Positions 9,050 to 35,657 of a stretch of 64,000 nucleotides of DNA are shown in pieces. The notes beneath the pieces are model-generated. The model was not told the origin of the DNA. It saw only the letters and a program-made list of their open reading frames with translations, and ran no database searches. Positions within the stretch are counted from its first letter, which is position 1; each line of letters starts with the position of its first letter. Position numbers and translations under genes: made by a program. The DNA is from Podarcis pityusensis (taxonomy: Eukaryota), in assembly GCA_964106645.2 (NCBI GenBank), contig OZ067039.1. One strand, written 5' to 3'.

Positions 9050-9136
9050 CACTGGACAAGGCTGATCCAATCCAGGCGGCCCTGGCTCTCCCTTTTGCCC
9101 TTTTGCTCCTTTTCTACCTGGAAGTCCTCTTTCTCC
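9050..9136 (-). CDS. COL23A1: COL23A1 exon, 87 nt, GERGLPGRKGAKGQKGEPGPPGLDQPCPV
   Basis: AG/GT boundaries, Gly-X-Y repeat, diagnostic LDQPCPV. Confidence 0.95.
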
Positions 9137-9870
9137 CTGTGACACAACAGAAAAATCAAAGCTCTTTTATAATCTGAAAGATTGGAGTGAGAGAAATACC
9201 ACTTATTAAGTCATGAATTTAGCGTCCACCTGTTTGCAATGTGTTATAGACTTATATAAGTGGCTTATATATCATGTGAAAGCTCAAATATAATACAGAA
9301 ATTAACAGAGAAGCACCGGAAAGAAAGAATAACCTGCTGTGTGAATGCAGTCCATGAGTGGTCACTTAAGAACAAACCTTCGTTAGCACTCATGGTTCAT
9401 TTGGTGAGCAGCAACCTACTAAGCTGCCTGGGTTTGGATGTAGTGCTTAGCCAGACTATGGTTTTGCTCTTGGCAGCATGGCAGCGGAATCAAGAGTAGG
9501 AGAGAAGCAAAGTGGGACATCAAGAACAAACCTGGTTACTGCTCATAATGCTTTATACTTTTGCCTTGCATATGCATTCACCTACAAAATCTGGCATATG
9601 ACCACATAATATTTCTGCAAATTTGAACTACCTTCAATTGAACAAGATATAGTTGGGCTCCCCTGTCCTCAAAGATTAAAGGTGAAATATATGGCCCTGT
9701 TCAGATATGCAGTAAATAGTTCTCCAGTATTAAAAGACTCTATAATGACAAATCATCTAGTGATATCTAGTACCATTTATGTAGATGAGGGCCAACATTT
9801 ATTTTAGGGGATGTTGTCAGTGAGTATGGACTTTTTGTGTGTGAACAGATGAATTAGAAGCAATACAGAC

Positions 9871-9924
9871 CTTTTCTCCTCTCTCACTTTTTTCTCCTTT
9901 TTCTCCTCTTAGGCCTGGGAAACC
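9871..9924 (-). CDS. COL23A1: COL23A1 exon, 54 nt, GFPGLRGEKGEKSERGEK
   Basis: AG/GT; carries the SER helix imperfection I recall from mammalian COL23A1. Confidence 0.93.
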
Positions 9925-10244
9925 CTATAAGAGCAACATGGGGGAAAAAGTATGTGTTTAGTGCCAAATAGTTCTGGTAATGAGGAAAAGGAAAAACAAG
10001 GTTGTTGTTTTTTAAAAGCAACCACTATGAATTGAGACAATGAAACATTTTCAGGAAAAAAGTATGTGCGTGTTTTGTACTAGAACTGTTTGTTTATTTC
10101 TTGCACCCTACTCTTCCTCATACAAAGCCCAGAACAGCTTAACACCATTTATAAAGTTCAGCATTAAAAACAAAGCTAGGCTGTGATTCACTACAAAGTG
10201 CAAAAAAAAATATCACTTGGGATATTGCTATTAAAGCATTTATC

Positions 10245-10317
10245 CTGATGAAGCACAAGGATGTTGCAGATCTTATACTACTACTCATATGTGGCCCAGC
10301 GACACCTCTTTCACCTT
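10245..10317 (-). pseudogene. Partial duplicate of the 15589-15660 exon end and its donor flank; donor destroyed
   Basis: Near-identical to about 15546-15617, but ctcacat is changed to ctcatat (GT>AT on the minus strand). Confidence 0.8.
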
Positions 10318-10465
10318 GGTATAAACCAAGGCTGCATCTACATTGACCTTCTAAACGTTATTGAACTGAACATTCTCTAAGGTTCAGTGGCAGTTTCCCT
10401 TTGTCAGTGGTTCACTGCTCTGCAGCGTGACAAGTGTAGATCCACCCCAAATCAGGCAATAGGTC

Positions 10466-10836
10466 TGTGGAGAGAATCAGAACCTACAGGGTTAAGAGGT
10501 TCTGTGTGACGTCTTACATTCTGAGGCGTGGTTGAGTATACTGAGGGGAGTGTTTCCTGAGTTCAGTTCTGGTTTCGCTTTTGCGGAGAGAGGACGCAAG
10601 ATGTGTGCGTTGTCGCCCGGAGAGATTTAAGAGCTGTTTTTCTACACGAATAAAGACTTTTAGAAGATAAGGAAGACACCGTGCGTGCTGCCTGATTTAT
10701 GTTTACACACACGCACAGCAACAGTTTCTCGCTGCGTGCACTCTGCCCCCCTGCCTAGGTCAGCTTCAGGCTTCCGAGCAGAGCTGCGCAGGGGAAGCGC
10801 TGGCTGGACGGCAGGGCAATTTGCCAAAGGCCAATA
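10466..10836 (+). repeat. 5' LTR (371 bp, TG...TA)
   Basis: Direct repeat of 13794-14164; AATAAA at 10649-10654. Confidence 0.95.
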
Positions 10837-10844
10837 GGTTATGG
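10837..10844 (+). promoter_or_regulatory. Primer-binding-site-like GGTTATGG
   Basis: Immediately after the 5' LTR; matches the first 8 nt of the copia-type GGTTATGGGCCCAG site for an internal fragment of tRNAiMet. Confidence 0.6.
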
Positions 10845-11095
10845 ATGGTCAGAAAACGCTTTGAAGCTGTTGCCAGACGTGCCGGGGTGTGTGTGGGAGC
10901 CAGCTGAGGAGAGGCTGTGGAGAGCTTGGAGCTGTGCCTAACGTTTGAAGGCAAGCTGACGACGCTGAAGCCAGCTTTGAGTCCTGCCTGAAGCTGAGAG
11001 AGGCAGACGAACTCAGCTGGGAGGAGCTGATCTGCTGGACCGGGAGCTGGAGAGCTGCTGTTTGTTTACGTGAGTACGCTGGGCCCCGGGGAAAG

Positions 11096-13837
11096 ATGGC
11101 AGATGACCAAGAGGTGCTTGAAGCTCCACTTGAGAAGCTTGAAGAGCTCACCACCCAGTCGTGGGAAACCTGGGTCAGGAAAGTGAGAGCCTGGTTTTGG
11201 GCAACAGGGCTGTGGGAAGTATGCAAGATAGAGCCGTCCCCAGCCAAACCGGCTGCTACTGAAAATGCAGAACTGGTGGACAGAGATGCAGAAAAGCTGC
11301 AGTCTGCTTTTCTGGAGGAGAAAATGCAGAGAGAGAAAGCTATGAGAGCTGAGATCTGCATGTTGAGAGCAAGCGTACATGCTAAGCTATTGCCGCATTT
11401 GGAAGGCATTGAGTCGGCCTGTGAAGCCTGGAAAGTGCTGAGGGGTTTGTGTCAAAGCTCAGCAGGAGGCCAGGAGCAGGATGACGCCGAGTGCTCAGCC
11501 AGAAGCCCTGATTTTACAGCCTCACGGAGTGCTGTTGGAGGTGTCGGGGGGGCAGAGAAGCCCAAAGGCCAGTTTGGAAAAGTTTCCACTGTGTATGACG
11601 AGGAGGAGTGCCGTTTCAGAGGGGGCGGAGCTGGCCCGGAAGCTTCGCTAGCTGAGAGCTCACCCCAGTGTTTTTCCACTCGTTGCTGCTACGTTTGCAA
11701 TTCTCCTGACCATCTGCGTCGCAACTGCCCACAGAGAGCAAAGGAGACAGGGCAGGATGTCTCCAAGGTCGTTTCCCATGGGAATCAGCCGGGTTTCCAT
11801 GGCAACCAGTCCAGCAGAGGGGGCAGGCGTGGGAAGTCGCAGAGAGGACGTGGCTCAGAGGGGGAAGACGGCGCTTATCAGCTAACTGCATCCATGGCGG
11901 TTGTAAAGGACACCTGCAAAGGCCCCAAGGACGGGGGCAGCGGGACGTTTGTTGCTATGGCAGCTTTGAAGGACAGCTGCAGTGAGAGCAACGTGATACG
12001 TTGGATTATTGACAGTACTGTCAACAGACATCTGATAACTGAGACACCTGGTGTTGAGATGTGGAACTGCAAACCTGTTTTGGTTGGGAAGACAGTGTGT
12101 TTTGCAGACAATTTACAAAAGCCATTGTCTAAAGTTGGACATGTTTATGTTTCTGTTTTGCAGGCGCAGCTGCGAGTCTACGTGGCGCCGGGGATACAAC
12201 ATTGTATTTTATCTGTACCTTGTCTCTTACAGGAGGGGTATAAGGTTTGCTTTGAGAAGGATGTCTGCACAATTTCCAGAGGGGGGAAAGTCTTGATCAG
12301 TGTTCCAAAAGGGAACAACGGCTTTTTTGTTCTTGAAGCACCTCTGGAGGGTGAAGGGTGTGCTGAGAAAGTACAGGCAAAGTCTGCAAAGGTTCATGCT
12401 CATGTTTCATGTGCTTGCGTGTGGCACAAGAAAATGTCACATGGTTCCTGTGAGGATATCCAGATGCTATCGGAGTGCACTAAAGGGTGCGAAATAAGGG
12501 AATGTGGTAGACCCCTAAAGTGCAGGGCTTGCAGAAAAGCCAATGTAAAAGGGTGTGGTTTTCCCAGAGTGGAGAGGGTGGCCACAAAGCCTTTTGAGCT
12601 TGTGCACACAGACCTTTTTGGTCCCATGCAAAAGCAAAGTCTGGGCGGGGCCAGGTTTGGGCTGACGCTGCAGGATGATTTCAGCCAGGTTGGCTGGTTT
12701 TATCCTCTGAAACGGAAAGAGGATGCAACGCAACTGATCAAAGATTGGATTGCGGAGGTGGAACTAAGGTTCTCCACCAAGGTGCAGGGGTTCCAGGGTG
12801 ACCGAGGGTCAGAGGTCACTGGGTCTGCTCTGCAGAAATTCTTTCGCCAGAAAGGGATACGTCACAAGGTGACTTCTCCTCAGGAGAAGGGAGTGGCAGA
12901 GCTTAGGAGCAAAGCTCTGGTTCAAGCAACAGAGATTCTACTGAATGACTCTGGTTTGCCTCAAAGCTTTTGGGGGGAAGGAATTAAATTTGTAAATTTC
13001 ACGAAGAATAGGTCCTACAATTCAGTGGTAGGTGACACCCCGCATTTTATGCTTCACGGAGAGAAGCCGAACCTGCATTTCCTCCGTGTATTCGGTACGA
13101 GAGCTGTGGTGTCGGTACCAAAGTTTCTGCAAGAGCAGGGTGGTCCAAAGGTCCAGGAAATGATCTTCTGTGGGTATGATCCTGCAACAAATGGGTGGAA
13201 GTTTGCATACCCAGAGGGTGATCAGACCAAGCTTCTGGTCAGCAAGCATGCTGAGTTCTGTGAGCAGGATGGTTGGGCAAGGCGCAAAGTGAGCCCTGAC
13301 GTTCTCTCAGATTGTCTATCTGAATCTGAGGAGGAAGGAGAGCTAGAGGCTGAACCTGAAAATGAGGACCAGGTCCAGGATCAAGGTCCGGAACAGGTTT
13401 GGGCATCTCCACGGGTTGTTAAAGGAGTGTCCAAAAGTGAGCCTTCATCTCCAGTGAGCATAATGGAGAAAGCTCACAGATGGGTCAAGTCAGAGGGGGA
13501 GTCGTCTGGTGAAGAAGACGCACTTGCTGGCCCCAGTGGGTCAGAAGAAGCACCCCAGTTCGTGCCCAGGCGTTCATCTCGGGCAACAAAGGGAATTCCA
13601 CCTGAAAGGTATGAAGCCACTAGTGTTTGGGTTGGTGTGGCTAGGTGCGAATCTGAGATTTGTGAGGAGGTTCAACAGGTGCCTGACAAAGACGCCAGGA
13701 AGAGGCGAAAGGCAATGGGGAAGGTGTTGAACTCTCAAGGGTCTGTAAATATGTGTGTCCACAACTCCTCTCAGAATGTAAGGCGAGAGGGGGTGTGGAG
13801 AGAATCAGAACCTACAGGGTTAAGAGGTTCTGTGTGA
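11096..13837 (+). CDS. Copia-like Gag-protease-integrase polyprotein, 913 aa, no RT or RNase H
   Basis: Gag N-terminus WETW..VRAW....GLW; CCHC knuckle CYVCNSPDHLRRNC; protease-like WIIDST..RH; HHCC WHKKMSH..CRAC; integrase LVHTDLFGP / GDRGSE / GVAE; SH3-like MIFCGYD; stop lies inside the 3' LTR. Confidence 0.92.
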   Translation: MADDQEVLEAPLEKLEELTTQSWETWVRKVRAWFWATGLWEVCKIEPSPAKPAATENAELVDRDAEKLQSAFLEEKMQREKAMRAEICMLRASVHAKLLPHLEGIESACEAWKVLRGLCQSSAGGQEQDDAECSARSPDFTASRSAVGGVGGAEKPKGQFGKVSTVYDEEECRFRGGGAGPEASLAESSPQCFSTRCCYVCNSPDHLRRNCPQRAKETGQDVSKVVSHGNQPGFHGNQSSRGGRRGKSQRGRGSEGEDGAYQLTASMAVVKDTCKGPKDGGSGTFVAMAALKDSCSESNVIRWIIDSTVNRHLITETPGVEMWNCKPVLVGKTVCFADNLQKPLSKVGHVYVSVLQAQLRVYVAPGIQHCILSVPCLLQEGYKVCFEKDVCTISRGGKVLISVPKGNNGFFVLEAPLEGEGCAEKVQAKSAKVHAHVSCACVWHKKMSHGSCEDIQMLSECTKGCEIRECGRPLKCRACRKANVKGCGFPRVERVATKPFELVHTDLFGPMQKQSLGGARFGLTLQDDFSQVGWFYPLKRKEDATQLIKDWIAEVELRFSTKVQGFQGDRGSEVTGSALQKFFRQKGIRHKVTSPQEKGVAELRSKALVQATEILLNDSGLPQSFWGEGIKFVNFTKNRSYNSVVGDTPHFMLHGEKPNLHFLRVFGTRAVVSVPKFLQEQGGPKVQEMIFCGYDPATNGWKFAYPEGDQTKLLVSKHAEFCEQDGWARRKVSPDVLSDCLSESEEEGELEAEPENEDQVQDQGPEQVWASPRVVKGVSKSEPSSPVSIMEKAHRWVKSEGESSGEEDALAGPSGSEEAPQFVPRRSSRATKGIPPERYEATSVWVGVARCESEICEEVQQVPDKDARKRRKAMGKVLNSQGSVNMCVHNSSQNVRREGVWRESEPTGLRGSV
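13780..13793 (+). promoter_or_regulatory. Polypurine tract
   Basis: aaggcgagaggggg immediately before the 3' LTR. Confidence 0.8.
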
Positions 13838-14164
13838 CGTCTTACATTCTGAGGCGTGGTTGAGTATACTGAGGGGAGTGTTTCCTGAGTTCAGTTCTGG
13901 TTTCGCTTTTGCGGAGAGAGGACGCAAGATGTGTGCGTTGTCGCCCGGAGAGATTTAAGAGCTGTTTTTCTACACGAATAAAGACTTTTAGAAGATAAGG
14001 AAGACACCGTGCGTGCTGCCTGATTTATGTTTACACACACGCACAGCAACAGTTTCTCGCTGCGTGCACTCTGCCCCCCTGCCTAGGTCAGCTTCAGGCT
14101 TCCGAGCAGAGCTGCGCAGGGGAAGCGCTGGCTGGACGGCAGGGCAATTTGCCAAAGGCCAATA
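13794..14164 (+). repeat. 3' LTR (371 bp)
   Basis: No mismatch with the 5' LTR found by eye; followed by the AGGTC TSD. Confidence 0.95.
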
Positions 14165-14422
14165 AGGTCCACCTCAGCAGTATTAGCATCTGTTATGATT
14201 GCAAAGGACTCTTTAGGATTGCTGGTGGAAGTTGCTTCTGACAATGCAACCAGAGACCCTTGGCCAGAAAAGGCTTAACCTGAGATGAAAGCATTTTTCC
14301 TGCTACACAGTCATGACCCCTCCCTCTACTAATCATTTACAACGCATGAAAAATTCTGTTTAATTTCTTCCTGCATTGTTTGCTGACATGCTGATAGTAT
14401 AGATAGTATACTCATTACTTAC

Positions 14423-14449
14423 ATCTAATCCTGGTTCCCCTGGCTTTCC
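14423..14449 (-). CDS. COL23A1: COL23A1 exon, 27 nt, GKPGEPGLD
   Basis: ccctag|...|gtaagt. Confidence 0.92.
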
Positions 14450-15429
14450 CTAGGGTTAAGAGAAAGAAATGGAGACAGTTAACTGGTGAGAGTGGGAAAC
14501 CACAGGATTCAACTAATGGGTCCCGTCAGAGGAAGTCCTGCGCAAGGACTTATGCTTGTGCAATGGGGCTTCTCCCCTCCTTACCCTGTACAAACAATTC
14601 CAGTGCTGCCCTGAAATTGGCTTGCGGGTGGGGGTGCTTGGGATAACGTCCACAACAGCACACAGAGGGAGGATATCATTCTGTCTGTTAAGCCAAAATG
14701 CTTCCCCTGATGGAACAACTGCCTTAGTGTGATGTTGAATTTCCCCCCATGTTAAGCAGGTTACATTTATGTTAAGCAGATACCTAGCTCCCTCCCACTG
14801 AAATCCATATTAAAAGTGCTTTGCTGACTGGATTCTGGCCCCTGTGTACAGCATCTGGACAATACACACATTTTTGTTTTAACAGAACTTCTGTAACTTT
14901 AGTAACACAAAACAACCAAAGAGGAAATACTATTATTGTTGTTTTTCCATTTTCCACTTTTTCCATTTCCACAGACGAATCGTTTAAAAAACAAAACAAA
15001 ACAGAAAACTGCAGAATTTTACCACTGACTCAGATATGATGTCTATAGTTTGGACAAGCTAATCACATGCACTTTTACTGTAAGCAGACAATCAGAATTA
15101 TCACTGCTGCAACACTGATGGAAAGGGTCTGAGAAAAAGACCACATGAGGTTTCAAAAAGGTTTCTGAAATCTGTTTTAAATTTCCATGTAGGGCTCAAT
15201 AACTATTCTTATCAAATTCTCTACCATTACAATAGAAAACAATTTAGAAAACAATTTAAGTTTGCCTGTAAGGAACTTTTATGTAACACAGAAGCTTTCT
15301 ACTTCATTAAAATTTAGTAGTTTCAAATAAAAAAAAATACAGTTATGAGTCATTTCGTATCCCTTTGGAGGACTGTGGTGGATGAACGCGTTAACCCATT
15401 TCCCATAACAGATCTATATGCGTTCTTAC

Positions 15430-15483
15430 CTTCTCCCCTTTGGTGCCTGGTAAACCGATAAGCCCAGGAGTACCAGCAGGACC
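15430..15483 (-). CDS. COL23A1: COL23A1 exon, 54 nt, GPAGTPGLIGLPGTKGEK
   Basis: ctctag|...|gtaaga. Confidence 0.93.
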
Positions 15484-30570: not shown

Positions 30571-31883
30571 TCTTTTATTTTATTTTTTTTGGAAAAGGAC
30601 TCCCAACTCTTGAAAATATTTCAGTTCTCTATTTTCCTTGGGCTAATGTTATGCTGATCATGCAAAACAAAGATACTTATGCTATTTTACATTCCATCTT
30701 GATTTCATGATACAGTATTTCCAAACTAACCTATTTGCTTCTTCCTGTTACCAGAGCAAATAAACATGCCATCTATGAAATAATGTCGTTTGCTGTAGGG
30801 ACTTATAAAATTTGTACACTCTGTTGTCATTTCCTGTACTGGTAATCAAATTATTGAATTACCATGCATTAAATTAATTAGCAGATTCGTGTTTGTGTGT
30901 GTTTTTTACTCTGCATGTCTTTATGTTAGAATGATTCTACATTTTATTTCATAAAAAATTAATGCAGTATTGTTTTTTATCCTGTATTAGCAGAGAAAAT
31001 GAACGTTCTATCTTAATTTGCCTTAATTTGGCAGTTTTTGTTCTAATTTAATGGTGCCTGGTGTGGAGGACAGAGCTCCATAAGTGCAGGATAAAACATT
31101 CAAAGAGCCAGGGTTTGAGGTCACTAGGTATGGGAAGTTGGATGTGCAGCACCAGAAGCCCTGCTAGCACACTAGCAATTTCTGATAGCTATGTGCCAAT
31201 AGCAGCCAAAGCTCATTCCATCGCCATCCTCCCATGTGGAAATCCAAGTGCATACAGCTCTTTAAACCACACTAGGTGCCCTGCTTTTCAGCATTCGCCA
31301 TCACATAGACAAAAGGGCTCAAGCTGTCTCACCAATTCAACATGAAACGGAATTTCATGTGAACCTGGACCTCACCATTTCACAGTAAGCATGCAAATAC
31401 CCTGCTCTGCACCATTCATGTCTTGTGCGTGAAACATACATCGAGAATCATATGGAAAGGAAGAGGCTTGGGAGGGGAAGGAGTTACATAAGAAAAGAAG
31501 CAGTTGGAGAGCAGATTAAGCAGGACCCTCCCAACACCTCTCTGATCCAAAATGGTCATCATCCTGAAACAAAAATGACCACCTGTGTTTTGATGCATAC
31601 ATTTGATTACCATGGTTCATTTTGCTCTCTGTTACCAAGCAGGGTTAATACTAGTCTTGGGCTATGATCCAAGGGAAGTCTTCTACATGTGGACTTTTTC
31701 AGCTACAAAAAGTTTTCTTCAAACATCTGATAAGCTGCTCCTGAATGTTGGAGAGCATGGCAGTGAAACATCCCATTAGATGTGAGGGGATGCTGCTGTA
31801 AATGCAAGTTGCAATTTCATTGCGAATGAAGCATTTTGCATGTTCATATCCAGACCTTACTATCCTTCCCATTTGATACTTAC

Positions 31884-31946
31884 CTTTGGCCCTGGTAGAC
31901 CATTTATTCCATTCACTCCTATTGGGCCAACACTTCCTGGTTCTCC
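31884..31946 (-). CDS. COL23A1: Array exon GEPGSVGPIGVNGINGLPGPK
   Basis: 63 nt, AG/GT, open. Confidence 0.8.
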
Positions 31947-32037
31947 CTGTAATGTTTGAAGGAGGTGCAATGGAAAACTCTCAGTTTCTAAGCAGGCCAG
32001 GTGCTAGTCTCACTATCCTTTCCAATGTGATACTTAC

Positions 32038-32100
32038 CTTTGGCCCTGGAAGGCCATCTGTGCCTTTCTCTCCTGTTGGGCCAACACTTCCTGGGTCTCC
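32038..32100 (-). CDS. COL23A1: Array exon GDPGSVGPTGEKGTDGLPGPK
   Basis: 63 nt, AG/GT, open. Confidence 0.8.
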
Positions 32101-32191
32101 CTGTAAAGTTTGAGAGAGGTGCAATGGAAAACTCTCAATTTCCAAGCAGGCCAGGTGCTAGTCTTACTATTCTTTCCCATGCGCCACTTAC

Positions 32192-32254
32192 CTTTGGCCC
32201 TGGTAGACCATCTGTGCCTTTTTCTCCTGCCGGGCCAGGGCTTCCGGGTTCTCC
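32192..32254 (-). CDS. COL23A1: Array exon GEPGSPGPAGEKGTDGLPGPK
   Basis: 63 nt, AG/GT, open. Confidence 0.8.
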
Positions 32255-32520
32255 CTGAAATGTTTGAAAGAGGTGCAATGGAAAAGTTCCAGGGCTGGAT
32301 CCAGATTCTGCTAGCAGAAGCCCGCACAAGGCATTCTACTCGCACAATTTCCTTCTCTCTCCTCCCCCTGTGCCCTGCCATTTGCTGGAGTGGGTGGGAG
32401 AACCCCCAGATCAGTGGGGAGAGGGTAGGAGAGGGGAGATTGTTTTGTTAAGCAAACAGATATGCTTGCATTGATATGAATGATGCCTAACCTCACTATC
32501 CTTTTCCATATGCTGCTTAC

Positions 32521-32583
32521 CTTTGGCCCTGGTAGCCCATCAATGCATTTGTCTCCTACTGAGCCATTGCCTCCTGGTTCTCC
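32521..32583 (-). CDS. COL23A1: Array exon GEPGGNGSVGDKCIDGLPGPK (Gly>Cys)
   Basis: 63 nt, AG/GT, open; one triplet Gly replaced. Confidence 0.7.
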
Positions 32584-32672
32584 CTGTAATATTTGAAGGA
32601 GGTGCAATGGAAAACGCAGTTTCTAATCAGGGCATGCGCTAATCTTACTATCCTTTCCCATGCGTTGCTTAC

Positions 32673-32735
32673 CTTTGGCCCTGGTAGACCATCTATGCCT
32701 TTCTCTCCTATTGGACCAGGGCTTCCTGGTTCACC
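32673..32735 (-). CDS. COL23A1: Array exon GEPGSPGPIGEKGIDGLPGPK
   Basis: 63 nt, AG/GT, open. Confidence 0.8.
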
Positions 32736-33227
32736 CTGCAATGTTTGAAAGAGGTGAAATGGAAAAGTCTCAATTTTTAAGCAGGGCAATAAGACCCAGT
32801 ACAAGCAGCTGGACATCTGGGAGGCTGGGTAAGAAGAGTCACCACCACTGCCCTCCTCAGCACTGCCCTCTGTTTCTGTCAGCCTCCTCTGGAGGACAGA
32901 TGAGGAAGCCAGATGTGAACCATCTAGTTAAAAGACCATTCTTCTGCTGTACTGTATTTATTGTCCGTTAACTTTCATTTTGCTCTATACTTAGGCGTTA
33001 GGTCTAGATTATATTTTTGTAATATTGAAGACAGTATATTCTACGTTTCTTGCTGAATTGTTGTTGTCTTTACAAAACTGCTTTCTCCCCAATCAATGTT
33101 TTGCAGTTTAATAGGAAAAAGGGAATTTGTTGTAAGCTGCTTTAGGAACAGCTCACTGTGCAAATGTGCCATATACATAAACTTAAATGAACTAAACACC
33201 CTTCAATCTTTCCCGTGCTCTGCTTAC

Positions 33228-33290
33228 CTTCGGCCCTGCTAGACCATCTAAGCCTTTCTCTCCCATTGGGCCAATGCTTCCGGGTTCTCC
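33228..33290 (-). CDS. COL23A1: Array exon GEPGSIGPMGEKGLDGLAGPK
   Basis: 63 nt, AG/GT, open. Confidence 0.8.
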
Positions 33291-33381
33291 CTATAATGTT
33301 CGAAAGAGATGCAGTGGAAAACTCTCAGTTGGTAAGCAGGGCATATGCTAATCTTAGCATTCTTCTCCATGCACTGCTTAC

Positions 33382-33444
33382 CTTAGGCCCTGGTAGCCCA
33401 TCTATGCCTCTCTCTCCCACTGAGCCAGCGCTTCCTCGTTTTCC
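33382..33444 (-). CDS. COL23A1: Array exon GKRGSAGSVGERGIDGLPGPK
   Basis: 63 nt, AG/GT, open. Confidence 0.8.
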
Positions 33445-33531
33445 CTGTGGTGTTTAAGGAAGGGCAATGGAACTCTCAGTTTCTGAGCAGGTATCATCAA
33501 GTCTTAGTATATTTTCTGATGTGCTGCTTAC

Positions 33532-33594
33532 CCTTGCTCCTGGTTGCCCTTTTATGCCTTTTTCCCCAGTCTGACCAATGCTTCCTGGATTTCC
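33532..33594 (-). CDS. COL23A1: Array exon GNPGSIGQTGEKGIKGQPGAR
   Basis: 63 nt, AG/GT, open; strongly diverged yet all Gly kept. Confidence 0.8.
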
Positions 33595-33686
33595 CTGTAG
33601 TGTTTGAAAGAGGTGCAATGGAAGACTTTAAGTTTTCAAGCAGGGCATGTGCTAAATCTTAGCCGTCATTCCCATGCACTGCTTAC

Positions 33687-33749
33687 CTTTGGCCCTGGTA
33701 GCCCATCCATGCCTCTCTCCCCTGTTGGGCCAATGCTTCCCCGGTTTCC
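33687..33749 (-). CDS. COL23A1: Array exon GNRGSIGPTGERGMDGLPGPK
   Basis: 63 nt, AG/GT, open. Confidence 0.8.
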
Positions 33750-33842
33750 CTGTCAATTTTGAAAGAGGGAGAATGGAAAAACTTGGTTTCTTAGCAGGCT
33801 ATGTGCTTAGGATCTTGTTATCCTTTCCCATGTAATACCCAC

Positions 33843-33905
33843 CTTTGGCCCTGGTAGACCACTCATGCCTCTTTTTCCCACAGGGCCAATGTTTCCTGGT
33901 TCTCC
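33843..33905 (-). CDS. COL23A1: Array exon GEPGNIGPVGKRGMSGLPGPK
   Basis: 63 nt, AG/GT, open. Confidence 0.8.
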
Positions 33906-33996
33906 CTGTATTATTTGAAAGAGGTGCAATAGGAAACTCTAAGTATCTAAGCATGGATTGTGCTAATCTTAGCATTCTTTCCCATGCACTGCTTAC

Positions 33997-34059
33997 CTTT
34001 GCCCCTGGTAGACCATCTATGCCTCTCTCCCCTACTGGGCCAGGACTTCCTGGTTCTCC
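33997..34059 (-). CDS. COL23A1: Array exon GEPGSPGPVGERGIDGLPGAK
   Basis: 63 nt, AG/GT, open. Confidence 0.8.
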
Positions 34060-34148
34060 CTATAGTGTTTTAAAAAAGGTGCAATGGAAAACTCTGTTTC
34101 TTAACAAGACATGTGCTAGTCTTTTATCAAGTCCCATGTGCTCCTTAC

Positions 34149-34211
34149 CATTGGCCCTGGTAGACCATCTATGCCTCTCTCCCCTACTGGGCCAGGACTT
34201 CCTGGTTCTCC
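34149..34211 (-). CDS. COL23A1: Array exon GEPGSPGPVGERGIDGLPGPM
   Basis: 63 nt, AG/GT, open. Confidence 0.8.
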
Positions 34212-34302
34212 CTGTAGTGTTTAAAAGAGGTGCAATGGAAAACTCTCAGTTGCTCACCAAGGAAAGTGCTAGCCTTTTTATCCTTTCTCATGCACTGCTT
34301 AC

Positions 34303-34365
34303 CTTTGCCCCTGGTAGACCATCTATGCCTCTCTCCCCTACTGGGCCAGGACTTCCTGGTTCTCC
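34303..34365 (-). CDS. COL23A1: Array exon GEPGSPGPVGERGIDGLPGAK
   Basis: 63 nt, AG/GT, open. Confidence 0.8.
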
Positions 34366-34457
34366 CTGTAGTGTTTTAAAAAGGTGCAATGGAAAACTCT
34401 CAGTTTCTCACCAAGGCAAGCACTAGCTTTTTTTATTCTTTCCCATGCACTGCTTAC

Positions 34458-34520
34458 CTTTGGCCCTGGTAGACCATCTATTCCTTTGTCTCCCATTGGG
34501 CCAACACTTCCTGGTTCTCC
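34458..34520 (-). CDS. COL23A1: Array exon GEPGSVGPMGDKGIDGLPGPK
   Basis: 63 nt, AG/GT, open. Confidence 0.8.
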
Positions 34521-34610
34521 CTGGAGAGTTTATAAGAGGTGCAATGGAAAAATTTCAGTTTCTGAACAGGACATGTGCTAGTCTTTTATCCATTCCCATG
34601 TGTTCCTTAC

Positions 34611-34673
34611 CTTTGGCCCTGGTAGACCATCTATTCCTTTATCTCCCATTGGGCCAACGCTTCCTTGTTTTCC
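34611..34673 (-). CDS. COL23A1: Array exon GKQGSVGPMGDKGIDGLPGPK
   Basis: 63 nt, AG/GT, open. Confidence 0.8.
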
Positions 34674-34763
34674 CTGTAGCATTCAAAAGAAGTGCAAAGA
34701 ACACACTCATTTTCTAAGAAGGGTGTTCATCAGTTTTACTGTACCATTCAAGAAGATGCTTAC

Positions 34764-34826
34764 CTTTGGCCCTGGTAGACCATCTATTCCTTTCTCTCCC
34801 ATTGGGCCAACACTTCCTGGTTCTCC
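34764..34826 (-). CDS. COL23A1: Array exon GEPGSVGPMGEKGIDGLPGPK
   Basis: 63 nt, AG/GT, open. Confidence 0.8.
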
Positions 34827-34917
34827 CTGTAATGTTTGAAAGAGGTGTAGTGGAAAACTCTCAGTTTCTAAGCAGGCCAGGTGCTAGTCTTACTATTCTT
34901 TCCCATGCACCACTTAC

Positions 34918-34980
34918 CTTTGGCCCTGGTAGACCATCTTTGCCTTTGTCTCCCATTGGGCCGGGGCCTCCAGGTTCCCC
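34918..34980 (-). CDS. COL23A1: Array exon GEPGGPGPMGDKGKDGLPGPK
   Basis: 63 nt, AG/GT, open. Confidence 0.8.
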
Positions 34981-35071
34981 CTGTAGTGTTTAAAAAAGGT
35001 GGAGTGGAAAACTCTTAGTTTTTGAGCAAGGCAAGTGCCAGTCTTTTTATGCTTTCCCATGCGCTGCTTAC

Positions 35072-35134
35072 CTTTGGCCCTGGTTTACCGTCTATGCCTT
35101 TGTCTCCCATTGGGCCAACGCTTCCTTGTTTTCC
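35072..35134 (-). CDS. COL23A1: Array exon GKQGSVGPMGDKGIDGKPGPK
   Basis: 63 nt, AG/GT, open. Confidence 0.8.
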
Positions 35135-35224
35135 CTGTAGCATTCAAAAAAAGTGCAAAGAACACTCTCATTTTCTAAGAAGGGTGTTCATCAGTTTTAC
35201 TGTACCATTCAAGGAGATGCTTAC

Positions 35225-35287
35225 CTTTGGCCCTGGTAGTCCTTCATTGCCCTTCTCGCCTATGGGCCCAATACTTCCTTGTTCTCC
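35225..35287 (-). CDS. COL23A1: Array exon (first in transcript order) GEQGSIGPIGEKGNEGLPGPK
   Basis: 63 nt; unique upstream acceptor flank tctcag. Confidence 0.88.
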
Positions 35288-35657
35288 CTGAGATTAATAC
35301 AAATTAAGGTGAACATTACAATCTTGCTTTCACCCCAAAGTCCAAATATTGAGCATCCTTCAAAAAGAATTCAGGCTCTAAATGACAGTCTTTAAACACG
35401 GTACAGCTGTTCTGATGGCTATTCAAGCTATTCTTTAAGAATGGTTGAGCCCCATAGGACCAAAGCGAAAGGGAAAAACAATCTTTAATTTCTGATTCAG
35501 TTTGCTCTATGTAGTGTAGAATATGACTCTCAATCACCAAAAATATTTAGGATTGAAATTTAACACGATCAACCTGTATGCCAATACTGCATTGATTCTA
35601 CTTTGTTACCCATAATATATATGATTGGGGGCGGGGAGCTACAAAAAGGAAGTTTAC

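Follow-up and report, generated by a model that had tools for sequence, protein, structure and literature searches.

The 64,000-nucleotide stretch of Podarcis pityusensis DNA analyzed here (contig OZ067039.1 of assembly GCA_964106645.2; "the window" denotes this whole stretch) carries, at 10466-14164, a 3699-bp copia-type long terminal repeat (LTR) retrotransposon flanked by the target-site duplication (TSD) AGGTC. It is proposed, with a probability of roughly 70%, that this element is a recent insertion of a copia family devoid of both reverse transcriptase (RT)-RNase H and the capsid C-terminal domain, which likely travels as a passenger in the particles of its relatives. Family letters (A for the family of this element, B to K for others) and L-numbers (loci) are labels made in this analysis, for which the host genome of 1.5 Gb was searched.

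Results

Structure of the element

The 5' LTR (10466-10836) and the 3' LTR (13794-14164) are the same over 371/371 bases, the TSD copies occupy 10461-10465 and 14165-14169 by direct sequence reading and in the termini table of the family copies, and the polypurine tract (PPT) GAGAGGGGG is read directly at 13785-13793; these and all further features of the element lie on the plus strand. A single open reading frame (ORF) of 913 amino acids (11096-13837 in the ORF listing) has its stop codon 44 bases into the 3' LTR. The initial annotation, made from the sequence alone, had described identical 371-bp LTRs, the TSD, the PPT, one 913-residue ORF ending within the 3' LTR and the absence of RT and RNase H, and all of this was borne out. 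As it had predicted, RVT_2 was not found in the ORF by Pfam scan, which returned SH3_retrovirus, zf-CCHC and rve (the last at 31.1 bits, just below the cut-off of 32.6), and neither YxDD nor KARLVA motifs were found in the three forward frames of the element. Two LTRs, a primer-binding site (PBS), a PPT and a 5-bp TSD are present as Ty1/copia features and TG...CA termini are absent; the LTR ends, previously taken as TG...CA, are corrected to TG...TA, as seen in 6/6 family-A copies with a perfect TSD.

Copies of family A in the host genome

Seven full-length copies of family A at 97-100% identity were obtained from the genome search (40 scored of 1380 candidates) and confirmed with a gag-protease probe. 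They measure 3677-3703 bp with LTR identities of 98.9-100%; RT is absent from 7/7 of these two-LTR copies and the ORF is unbroken in 6/7. Perfect TSDs, found in 6/7, differ between insertions except for L003 and L004, which share one, so that six independent insertions are counted. These two are located 22 kb from each other within a duplicated tract of satellite-like sequence, and L005, which has no perfect TSD, is nested in another copia element of family-D type. LTR matches of at least 98% identity numbered 16, that is, seven pairs and two singles (40 scored of 276 candidates); the one single LTR checked has a TSD, and no RT-bearing element with this LTR was found among the 40 scored.

A contig of sample X2 tracks the left flank up to 10465 and then appears to continue into 146 non-LTR bases, the pattern of an empty site in the alignment table. 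Contigs from two other organisms contain the RT-less 3' end as well; RNA from related organisms falls mostly on the LTR and on conserved stretches and is not assignable to family A. The genome-wide search for 3.7-kb copies sharing the deletion, which the initial annotation had put forward as a check, thus yielded seven copies, all RT-less; since their TSDs differ and an empty-site pattern is seen in another sample, the contrary case of all other copies being full length did not occur, and the proposal of an active non-autonomous family gains support.

The accompanying premise that copia elements are uncommon in amniotes does not hold for this genome, where copia is plentiful and 150/150 scored candidates (of 2321) were RVT_2 matches. 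Copia has been reported absent from mammals and birds in the available text of PMC4350176, and active copia has been published for the corn snake (PMC4657000, PMC11948899, in their accessible parts). A large share of all copia matches falls on contig C19 (38 Mb), as might be the case for a repeat-rich sex chromosome, and 0/7 family-A copies lie there.

Coding capacity of the ORF

The ORF begins with an N-terminal part of the capsid of family-F type (11096-11470; hhalign 98.5%) that covers columns 1-112 only of the full-Gag profile and shows identities of 58% to family F and 38% to family D. By comparison with full-Gag relatives, a linker (11471-11686) stands in place of their capsid C-terminal domain and is followed by an intact CCHC zinc knuckle (11687-11728; Pfam zf-CCHC). 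Retrotran_gag_2 was matched in the full-Gag relatives D, G, H, J, L091 and L197 with E values of 1e-20 to 1e-31 and, in Pfam, was not matched by A, B-L063, the K-type L144, E or F. The Gag model of family D (pLDDT, the predicted local distance difference test, 78.5) matches the solved capsid of Drosophila copia (E 1.5e-7) and partly the Ty1 capsid C-terminal domain (CA-CTD). The part missing in A is the four-helix domain of this model, which superposes on Ty1 CA-CTD with a TM score of 0.8 by target length and lies inside the solved copia capsid. A PDB sequence search with the Gag of A gave no capsid match, its single-sequence fold (mean pLDDT 42.5) was left unused, and the four distant copia polyproteins from a protein homologue search (22-30% identity) were uninformative.

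Typically, a capsid requires its C-terminal domain. A two-domain capsid and an intact Gag are absent in A, and the family therefore likely needs a helper for capsid besides RT. The Gag region of the initial annotation stands for the capsid N-terminal part, to which the profile match is limited, and falls for the C-terminal part; the statement that the element makes its own Gag could not be upheld. Judging from their sequences, the description of a family that makes Gag and borrows RT fits the sister subfamilies J and C instead.

In the protease domain (12002-12340), one invariant residue of the active-site motif is lost in 6/6 copies checked. The integrase (12425-13264; HHCC, core and SH3, from Pfam and invariant-residue comparison) retains HHCC and D-D-E in 6/6 copies and 24/26 invariant core residues, together with a 3-residue deletion of the catalytic loop in 6/6. 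Downstream, alignment with family D identifies a pre-RT remnant (13613-13784) fused to the 3' end of the element, with the deletion junction near 13753.

An old RT-less clade

This junction is common to families A, B and C, and about 1.44 kb of RT-RNase H is gone relative to the RT-positive family D; L015 retains 146 bases more at the junction than A, B and C. In its B/C form, the junction pattern had 167 host-genome matches as against 1 for a control pattern. Forty junction loci of family-B backbone (L143-L182), being the first 41 listed matches minus L008, were examined: RT was absent from 40/40, and the 35 with an LTR pair had LTR identities of 98.8-100%. On the integrase tree (25 rows, rooted for drawing only), the RT-less elements and the partial copy L065 form one branch with support 100/99 within lineage D, with L015 as its sister and G on a long branch. 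Members of lineage D carry RVT_2 after rve, in keeping with the copia order Gag-PR-IN-RT-RH, and the integrase of A nests among RVT_2-bearing elements; on this integrase sequence evidence the element is classed as Ty1/copia (Pseudoviridae) by descent.

The ratio of nonsynonymous to synonymous substitution rates (dN/dS) among copies, also suggested initially as a check, indicates purifying selection. Between A and B, from protease to linker, it is 0.39 (576 codons), as against a median of 0.92 and a minimum of 0.71 among 300 neutral no-stop simulations; 0/2000 frames stayed open under simulated neutral decay even at 0.1 changes per site. Within A it ranges from 0.35 to 0.83 on few changes. From the low dN/dS and the open frame it follows that the ORF product mattered over many replication rounds without RT, and the RT-less clade is old, with purifying selection on the remaining ORF. 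In the integrase SH3 region (13079-13264), the synonymous divergence (dS) between A and B is 0.31 as against about 0.9 elsewhere, a second and older exchange between RT-less families.

Partner families and exchange of gag segments

The capsid C-terminal domain is missing also from RT-positive elements, namely 6/6 copies of family F, 5/6 of family E and 4/12 D loci, and has been lost in differing ways across several lineages. E and F have LTR identities of 98.5-100%; their members lacking the domain (E: L081-L084, L099; F: L086-L098) carry intact ORFs of 1350-1450 amino acids, and family E has lost the zinc knuckle as well and ends in TG..AA. Conversely, J comprises young RT-less copies with a whole Gag. 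Among the 40 B-backbone copies, J accounts for 8, another 27 bear a different truncated gag, 2 have a shorter remnant, and the remaining 3 show no gag within this stretch; J-like frames of 928-935 amino acids were present in 20/150 scored capsid-domain matches, 5 of these 20 being examined among the 40 B-backbone copies. Loss of RT with retention of the capsid domain is seen in L197, L194 and L196, separately within the E and F lineages; L197 has an ORF of 964 amino acids and 99% LTR identity. Family B (L143-L182) is young and RT-less, with about 160 copies, among which at least three gag cassettes are interchanged; even near-identical copies differ widely in U5 and at their LTR ends.

Segments of gag have been exchanged between these families. 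In the A copy L007, about 75 informative sites in uninterrupted succession are of F type, with A-type sites on both sides, and 198/207 bases of this patch are the same as in the F copy L098. The gag cassette of A is found in four B copies, with a dS of 0 in its N-terminal part between L001 and L063. Template switching requires co-packaging, and the L007 patch is as would be expected from co-packaging, gene conversion being the alternative. Contigs of another organism hold a related element in which a further 247-bp gag segment (11116-11364) is replaced.

Primer-binding site and a primer copy in U5

The PBS GGTTATGG (10837-10844, 8 nt) is of half-tRNA type, a Hemivirus feature, and is complementary to nt 32-39 in the anticodon arm of the initiator tRNA-Met. 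The 72-nt tRNA-Met gene of the host (L104:2820-2891), which we take to be the initiator, pairs with it over nt 32-39 only. The site measures 8-9 nt in the short-PBS clade, as against a longer site of canonical type in the outgroups H and I, most of which have 14 nt.

The LTR itself contains a same-sense copy of initiator tRNA-Met nt 1-29 at 10777-10807 (LTR positions 312-342; score 38, p=0.002 against dinucleotide shuffles), which reaches nt 35 in relatives. It sits 10-41 nt ahead of the LTR end and past AATAAA (10649-10654), the predicted poly(A) signal, near which the RNA depth of related LTRs drops past 10650 (a weak indication); because this signal lies upstream, the copy is placed in U5. 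Within the last 110 nt, the copy scored 24-48 in 64/64 LTRs from detected LTR pairs of families A, B, D, E and F, 10-14 in 7/7 outgroup LTRs and at most 22 across 437 host windows, and it outscored 31 control tRNA-half queries in 9/10 short-PBS LTRs. It ends at the predicted primer end with nothing of the tRNA 3' half, its D-loop letters are the best conserved part, and it persists across LTRs of A, E, F and G that otherwise barely align. A B box was not found in 11/11 elements, nor an intact A box in the copy, and Rfam on the 5' LTR region gave seven chance-level matches and no tRNA. LTR ends at perfect TSDs read TG..TA in A (6), TG..AA in E (6), and TG..GA (15) and TG..CA (16) in B. Duplexes between the U5 minus strand and the primer were predicted at -42 to -69 kcal/mol, compared with -19 and -24 kcal/mol for outgroups, under RNA parameters; these energies arise because U5 resembles the tRNA and therefore constitute no independent test of a fold-back. 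Read ends resembling the template-switch adapter near 10568 weakly suggest a transcript start in the LTR of related elements of another organism.

Other features of the window

The element lies antisense within an intron (9137-15429) of a host collagen gene on the minus strand, between the Gly-X-Y exons at 9065-9136 and 15430-15483. Further along the minus strand, at 31859-35290, a 154-bp exon-plus-intron unit of the collagen gene is repeated in tandem, with 18 in-frame 63-bp Gly-X-Y exons and splice signals listed; through this recent expansion of exons the collagen could become longer. The last collagen exons recall what is presumably COL23A1. The six other ORFs of the window had no Pfam match.

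Discussion

Under the passenger reading, RNA of family A would be co-packaged with the partner families F and B, with RT most likely supplied by F, and capsid by the full-Gag subfamily J or by complete elements such as G. We infer the co-packaging of A RNA with helper products from the exchanged segments. The zinc knuckle, the capsid fragment and possibly the integrase of A may work on the RNA or cDNA of A itself, and this would account for a frame that has stayed open. For priming, the predicted partner is the 5' half of initiator tRNA-Met, bound by no more than 8 bp; owing to the U5 copy, the first DNA made would be complementary to primer nt 1-35 and might fold back on the primer. This could steady a primer whose pairing is weak, or provide RNase H with an extended hybrid on which to remove it. 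Such a fold-back of nascent DNA is assigned slightly less than an even chance. A broader picture, in which a vertebrate copia clade has reduced its PBS to 8 bases and makes up for this with the U5 primer copy (a previously undescribed initiation by fold-back, with the LTR end freed from the CA rule) and a community of mutually complementing capsid-only and RT-only halves, repeatedly arisen, carries doubly defective passengers, is put forward tentatively and is rather doubtful as a whole.

Several observations weigh against these proposals. The dN/dS of the integrase core, 0.30, is hardly below the 0.36 of the linker, which makes integrase activity appear uncertain, and constraint on the core is weaker than between RT-positive families (0.08-0.10, with dS near saturation). 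Complete young elements are present, namely G (11 matches with 1385-residue frames of 150 scored; LTR identity of complete copies 99.7-100%), L091 (identical LTRs) and L189 (no LTR pair detected), and a split partnership is therefore not required. The L007 patch may stem from gene conversion at the DNA level, its best donor being at 96% and not 100%. With regard to the primer copy, its score is tied with a control query in L144 and is weak in L208 (20) and L195 (18), the common change at tRNA nt 22 would not be tolerated by fold-back, and some changes in the copy fit an RNA hairpin or CpG decay equally well. A substitution (wobble) bias was discarded as proof of fold-back, since CpG decay and the common nt 22 change are confounding factors.

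The most serious rival, though a minority view, is that all defective families parasitise complete elements (G, full E, older D) and that their complementary defects are coincidental. The young complete G copies, which share the PBS and PPT, and the complete L091 are in keeping with it; however, the exchanged gag segments tie A to F and B, three A/B elements set against L093 held no G-derived segment beyond one 54-bp match at 78%, and RT has been lost while Gag was retained in each of the D, E and F lineages. That family A builds a working capsid of its own and borrows RT only is improbable. Its frame is open, the capsid N-terminal helices and the intact zinc knuckle are under purifying selection, and the abundant young E and F lack the same domain, so that a non-canonical particle is conceivable; against this stand the missing Retrotran_gag_2 match, the superposition of the absent domain on Ty1 CA-CTD, and its different loss in several lineages, as expected of parasites. 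A one-off deletion after insertion, or an assembly artefact, has next to no likelihood given the junction in contigs of two other organisms, and the one-off deletion was ruled out by the six independent insertions with the deletion in common and by the junction shared across the clade.

With respect to the U5 copy, a role as RNA, either in a U5-leader stem or as a D-arm-like hairpin for RT, nucleocapsid or a tRNA-cutting enzyme, is considered unlikely. A paired change in family D preserves the D-stem, G-U is common at that pair, and the leaders of A and D can pair in part with the tRNA half (p 0.013-0.13), yet the paired change falls at CpG sites, the stem is broken in 4/7 A copies, predicted folds vary between families, and it is the D-loop letters that are best conserved. 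U5-leader duplexes were no better than shuffles in 10/10 short-PBS LTRs (p 0.056-0.75), and the U5-leader stem was rejected as a common explanation on this ground. A low chance is likewise given to the copy having no role in priming, whether as a by-product or relic of reverse transcription, in which the primer was copied and folded into U5, or as a Helenus-like polymerase III promoter. The unusual variability of U5 among B copies, as repeated re-templating might cause, would suit a relic, and tRNA-derived LTRs are already known (PMC10886601, in its available text). However, neither persistence across barely alignable LTRs nor a halt at the predicted primer end favors a relic, and the promoter was ruled out by the missing B box in 11/11 elements.

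Partnerships of defective LTR retrotransposons have so far been inferred mostly in plants, from shared termini. The passenger reading, preferred here, concerns a vertebrate genome in which both complementary halves are young at once and recombination scars name the partners; trans-complementation is therefore directly testable from sequence and tissue cDNA. The combination of a primer-half copy in U5 with an 8-nt PBS is relevant to the holding and the removal of half-tRNA primers, and the copy is a possible clade marker. Repeat surveys based on RT would leave 170 or more young RT-less copies of this genome uncounted.

Comparison with known systems

In plants, partnerships between elements that provide Gag and elements that borrow it, with exchange of gag cassettes, are described in the accessible parts of the reports on Quinta/Cereba (PMC11302176), on Sabrina, WHAM and BARE-2 (PMC9744471), on Tos17 (PMC3977881), a Gag borrower, and on TR-GAG elements (PMC4350172), which provide Gag. 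According to the same texts, the wheat pairs RLG_Quinta/RLG_Cereba and semi-autonomous RLG_Sabrina/WHAM resemble the clade of A in forming a long-lived RT-less lineage under selection, with a PBS common to the RT-positive partners and gag cassettes interchanged by recombination. They are Gypsy elements of plants whose Gag is intact and which have no integrase, unlike the present vertebrate copia, which keeps protease and integrase domains; the capsid of A is broken, unlike that of Quinta, and J would be the Quinta-like member. Rice Tos17 and barley BARE-2 are described there as active copia elements that have no functional Gag and use the particle of a relative, and E and F appear to be of this kind; both retain RT, whereas A is without RT and has a capsid fragment and zinc knuckle in one frame. 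The TR-GAG elements, as presented in the available text, share with A a length below 4 kb, two LTRs, one ORF and the lack of RT, but encode Gag only, whereas the ORF of A comprises a partial Gag together with protease and integrase.

Half-tRNA priming is known (PMC8515867; PMC10886601), and Drosophila copia and yeast Ty5 (Hemivirus) likewise have a PBS against the anticodon arm of the initiator tRNA-Met; the modelled capsid fold of the full-Gag relatives also matches that of Drosophila copia. The present elements differ from both in a PBS of 8-9 nt, in LTR ends of TG..TA, AA, GA or CA, and in the same-sense primer copy in U5. The literature search, which covered sources other than Repbase, subscription journals and supplements, and these in their accessible parts, returned neither an RT-less copia clade from a vertebrate nor a U5 with a same-sense copy of the primer, and no closer parallel was seen in the available text of PMC3286476, PMC7472051, PMC13570524, 10.1101/710657 and 10.1101/2024.02.21.581285. 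Of these features, the U5 primer copy has the best claim to being new, the defective partnership itself being already known from plants. Its nearest counterpart is found in the Helenus (TRIMp3) terminal-repeat retrotransposons in miniature, non-autonomous elements with tRNA-derived sequence in the LTR, which serves as a promoter and is reported to be unrelated to the PBS (PMC10886601, available text). As far as that text goes, Helenus elements are non-coding, 311-1263 bp long and equipped with A and B boxes, whereas A has a 2.9-kb coding interior and no B box, and its copy comprises the 5' half only of the predicted primer and is found also in coding, RT-positive families.

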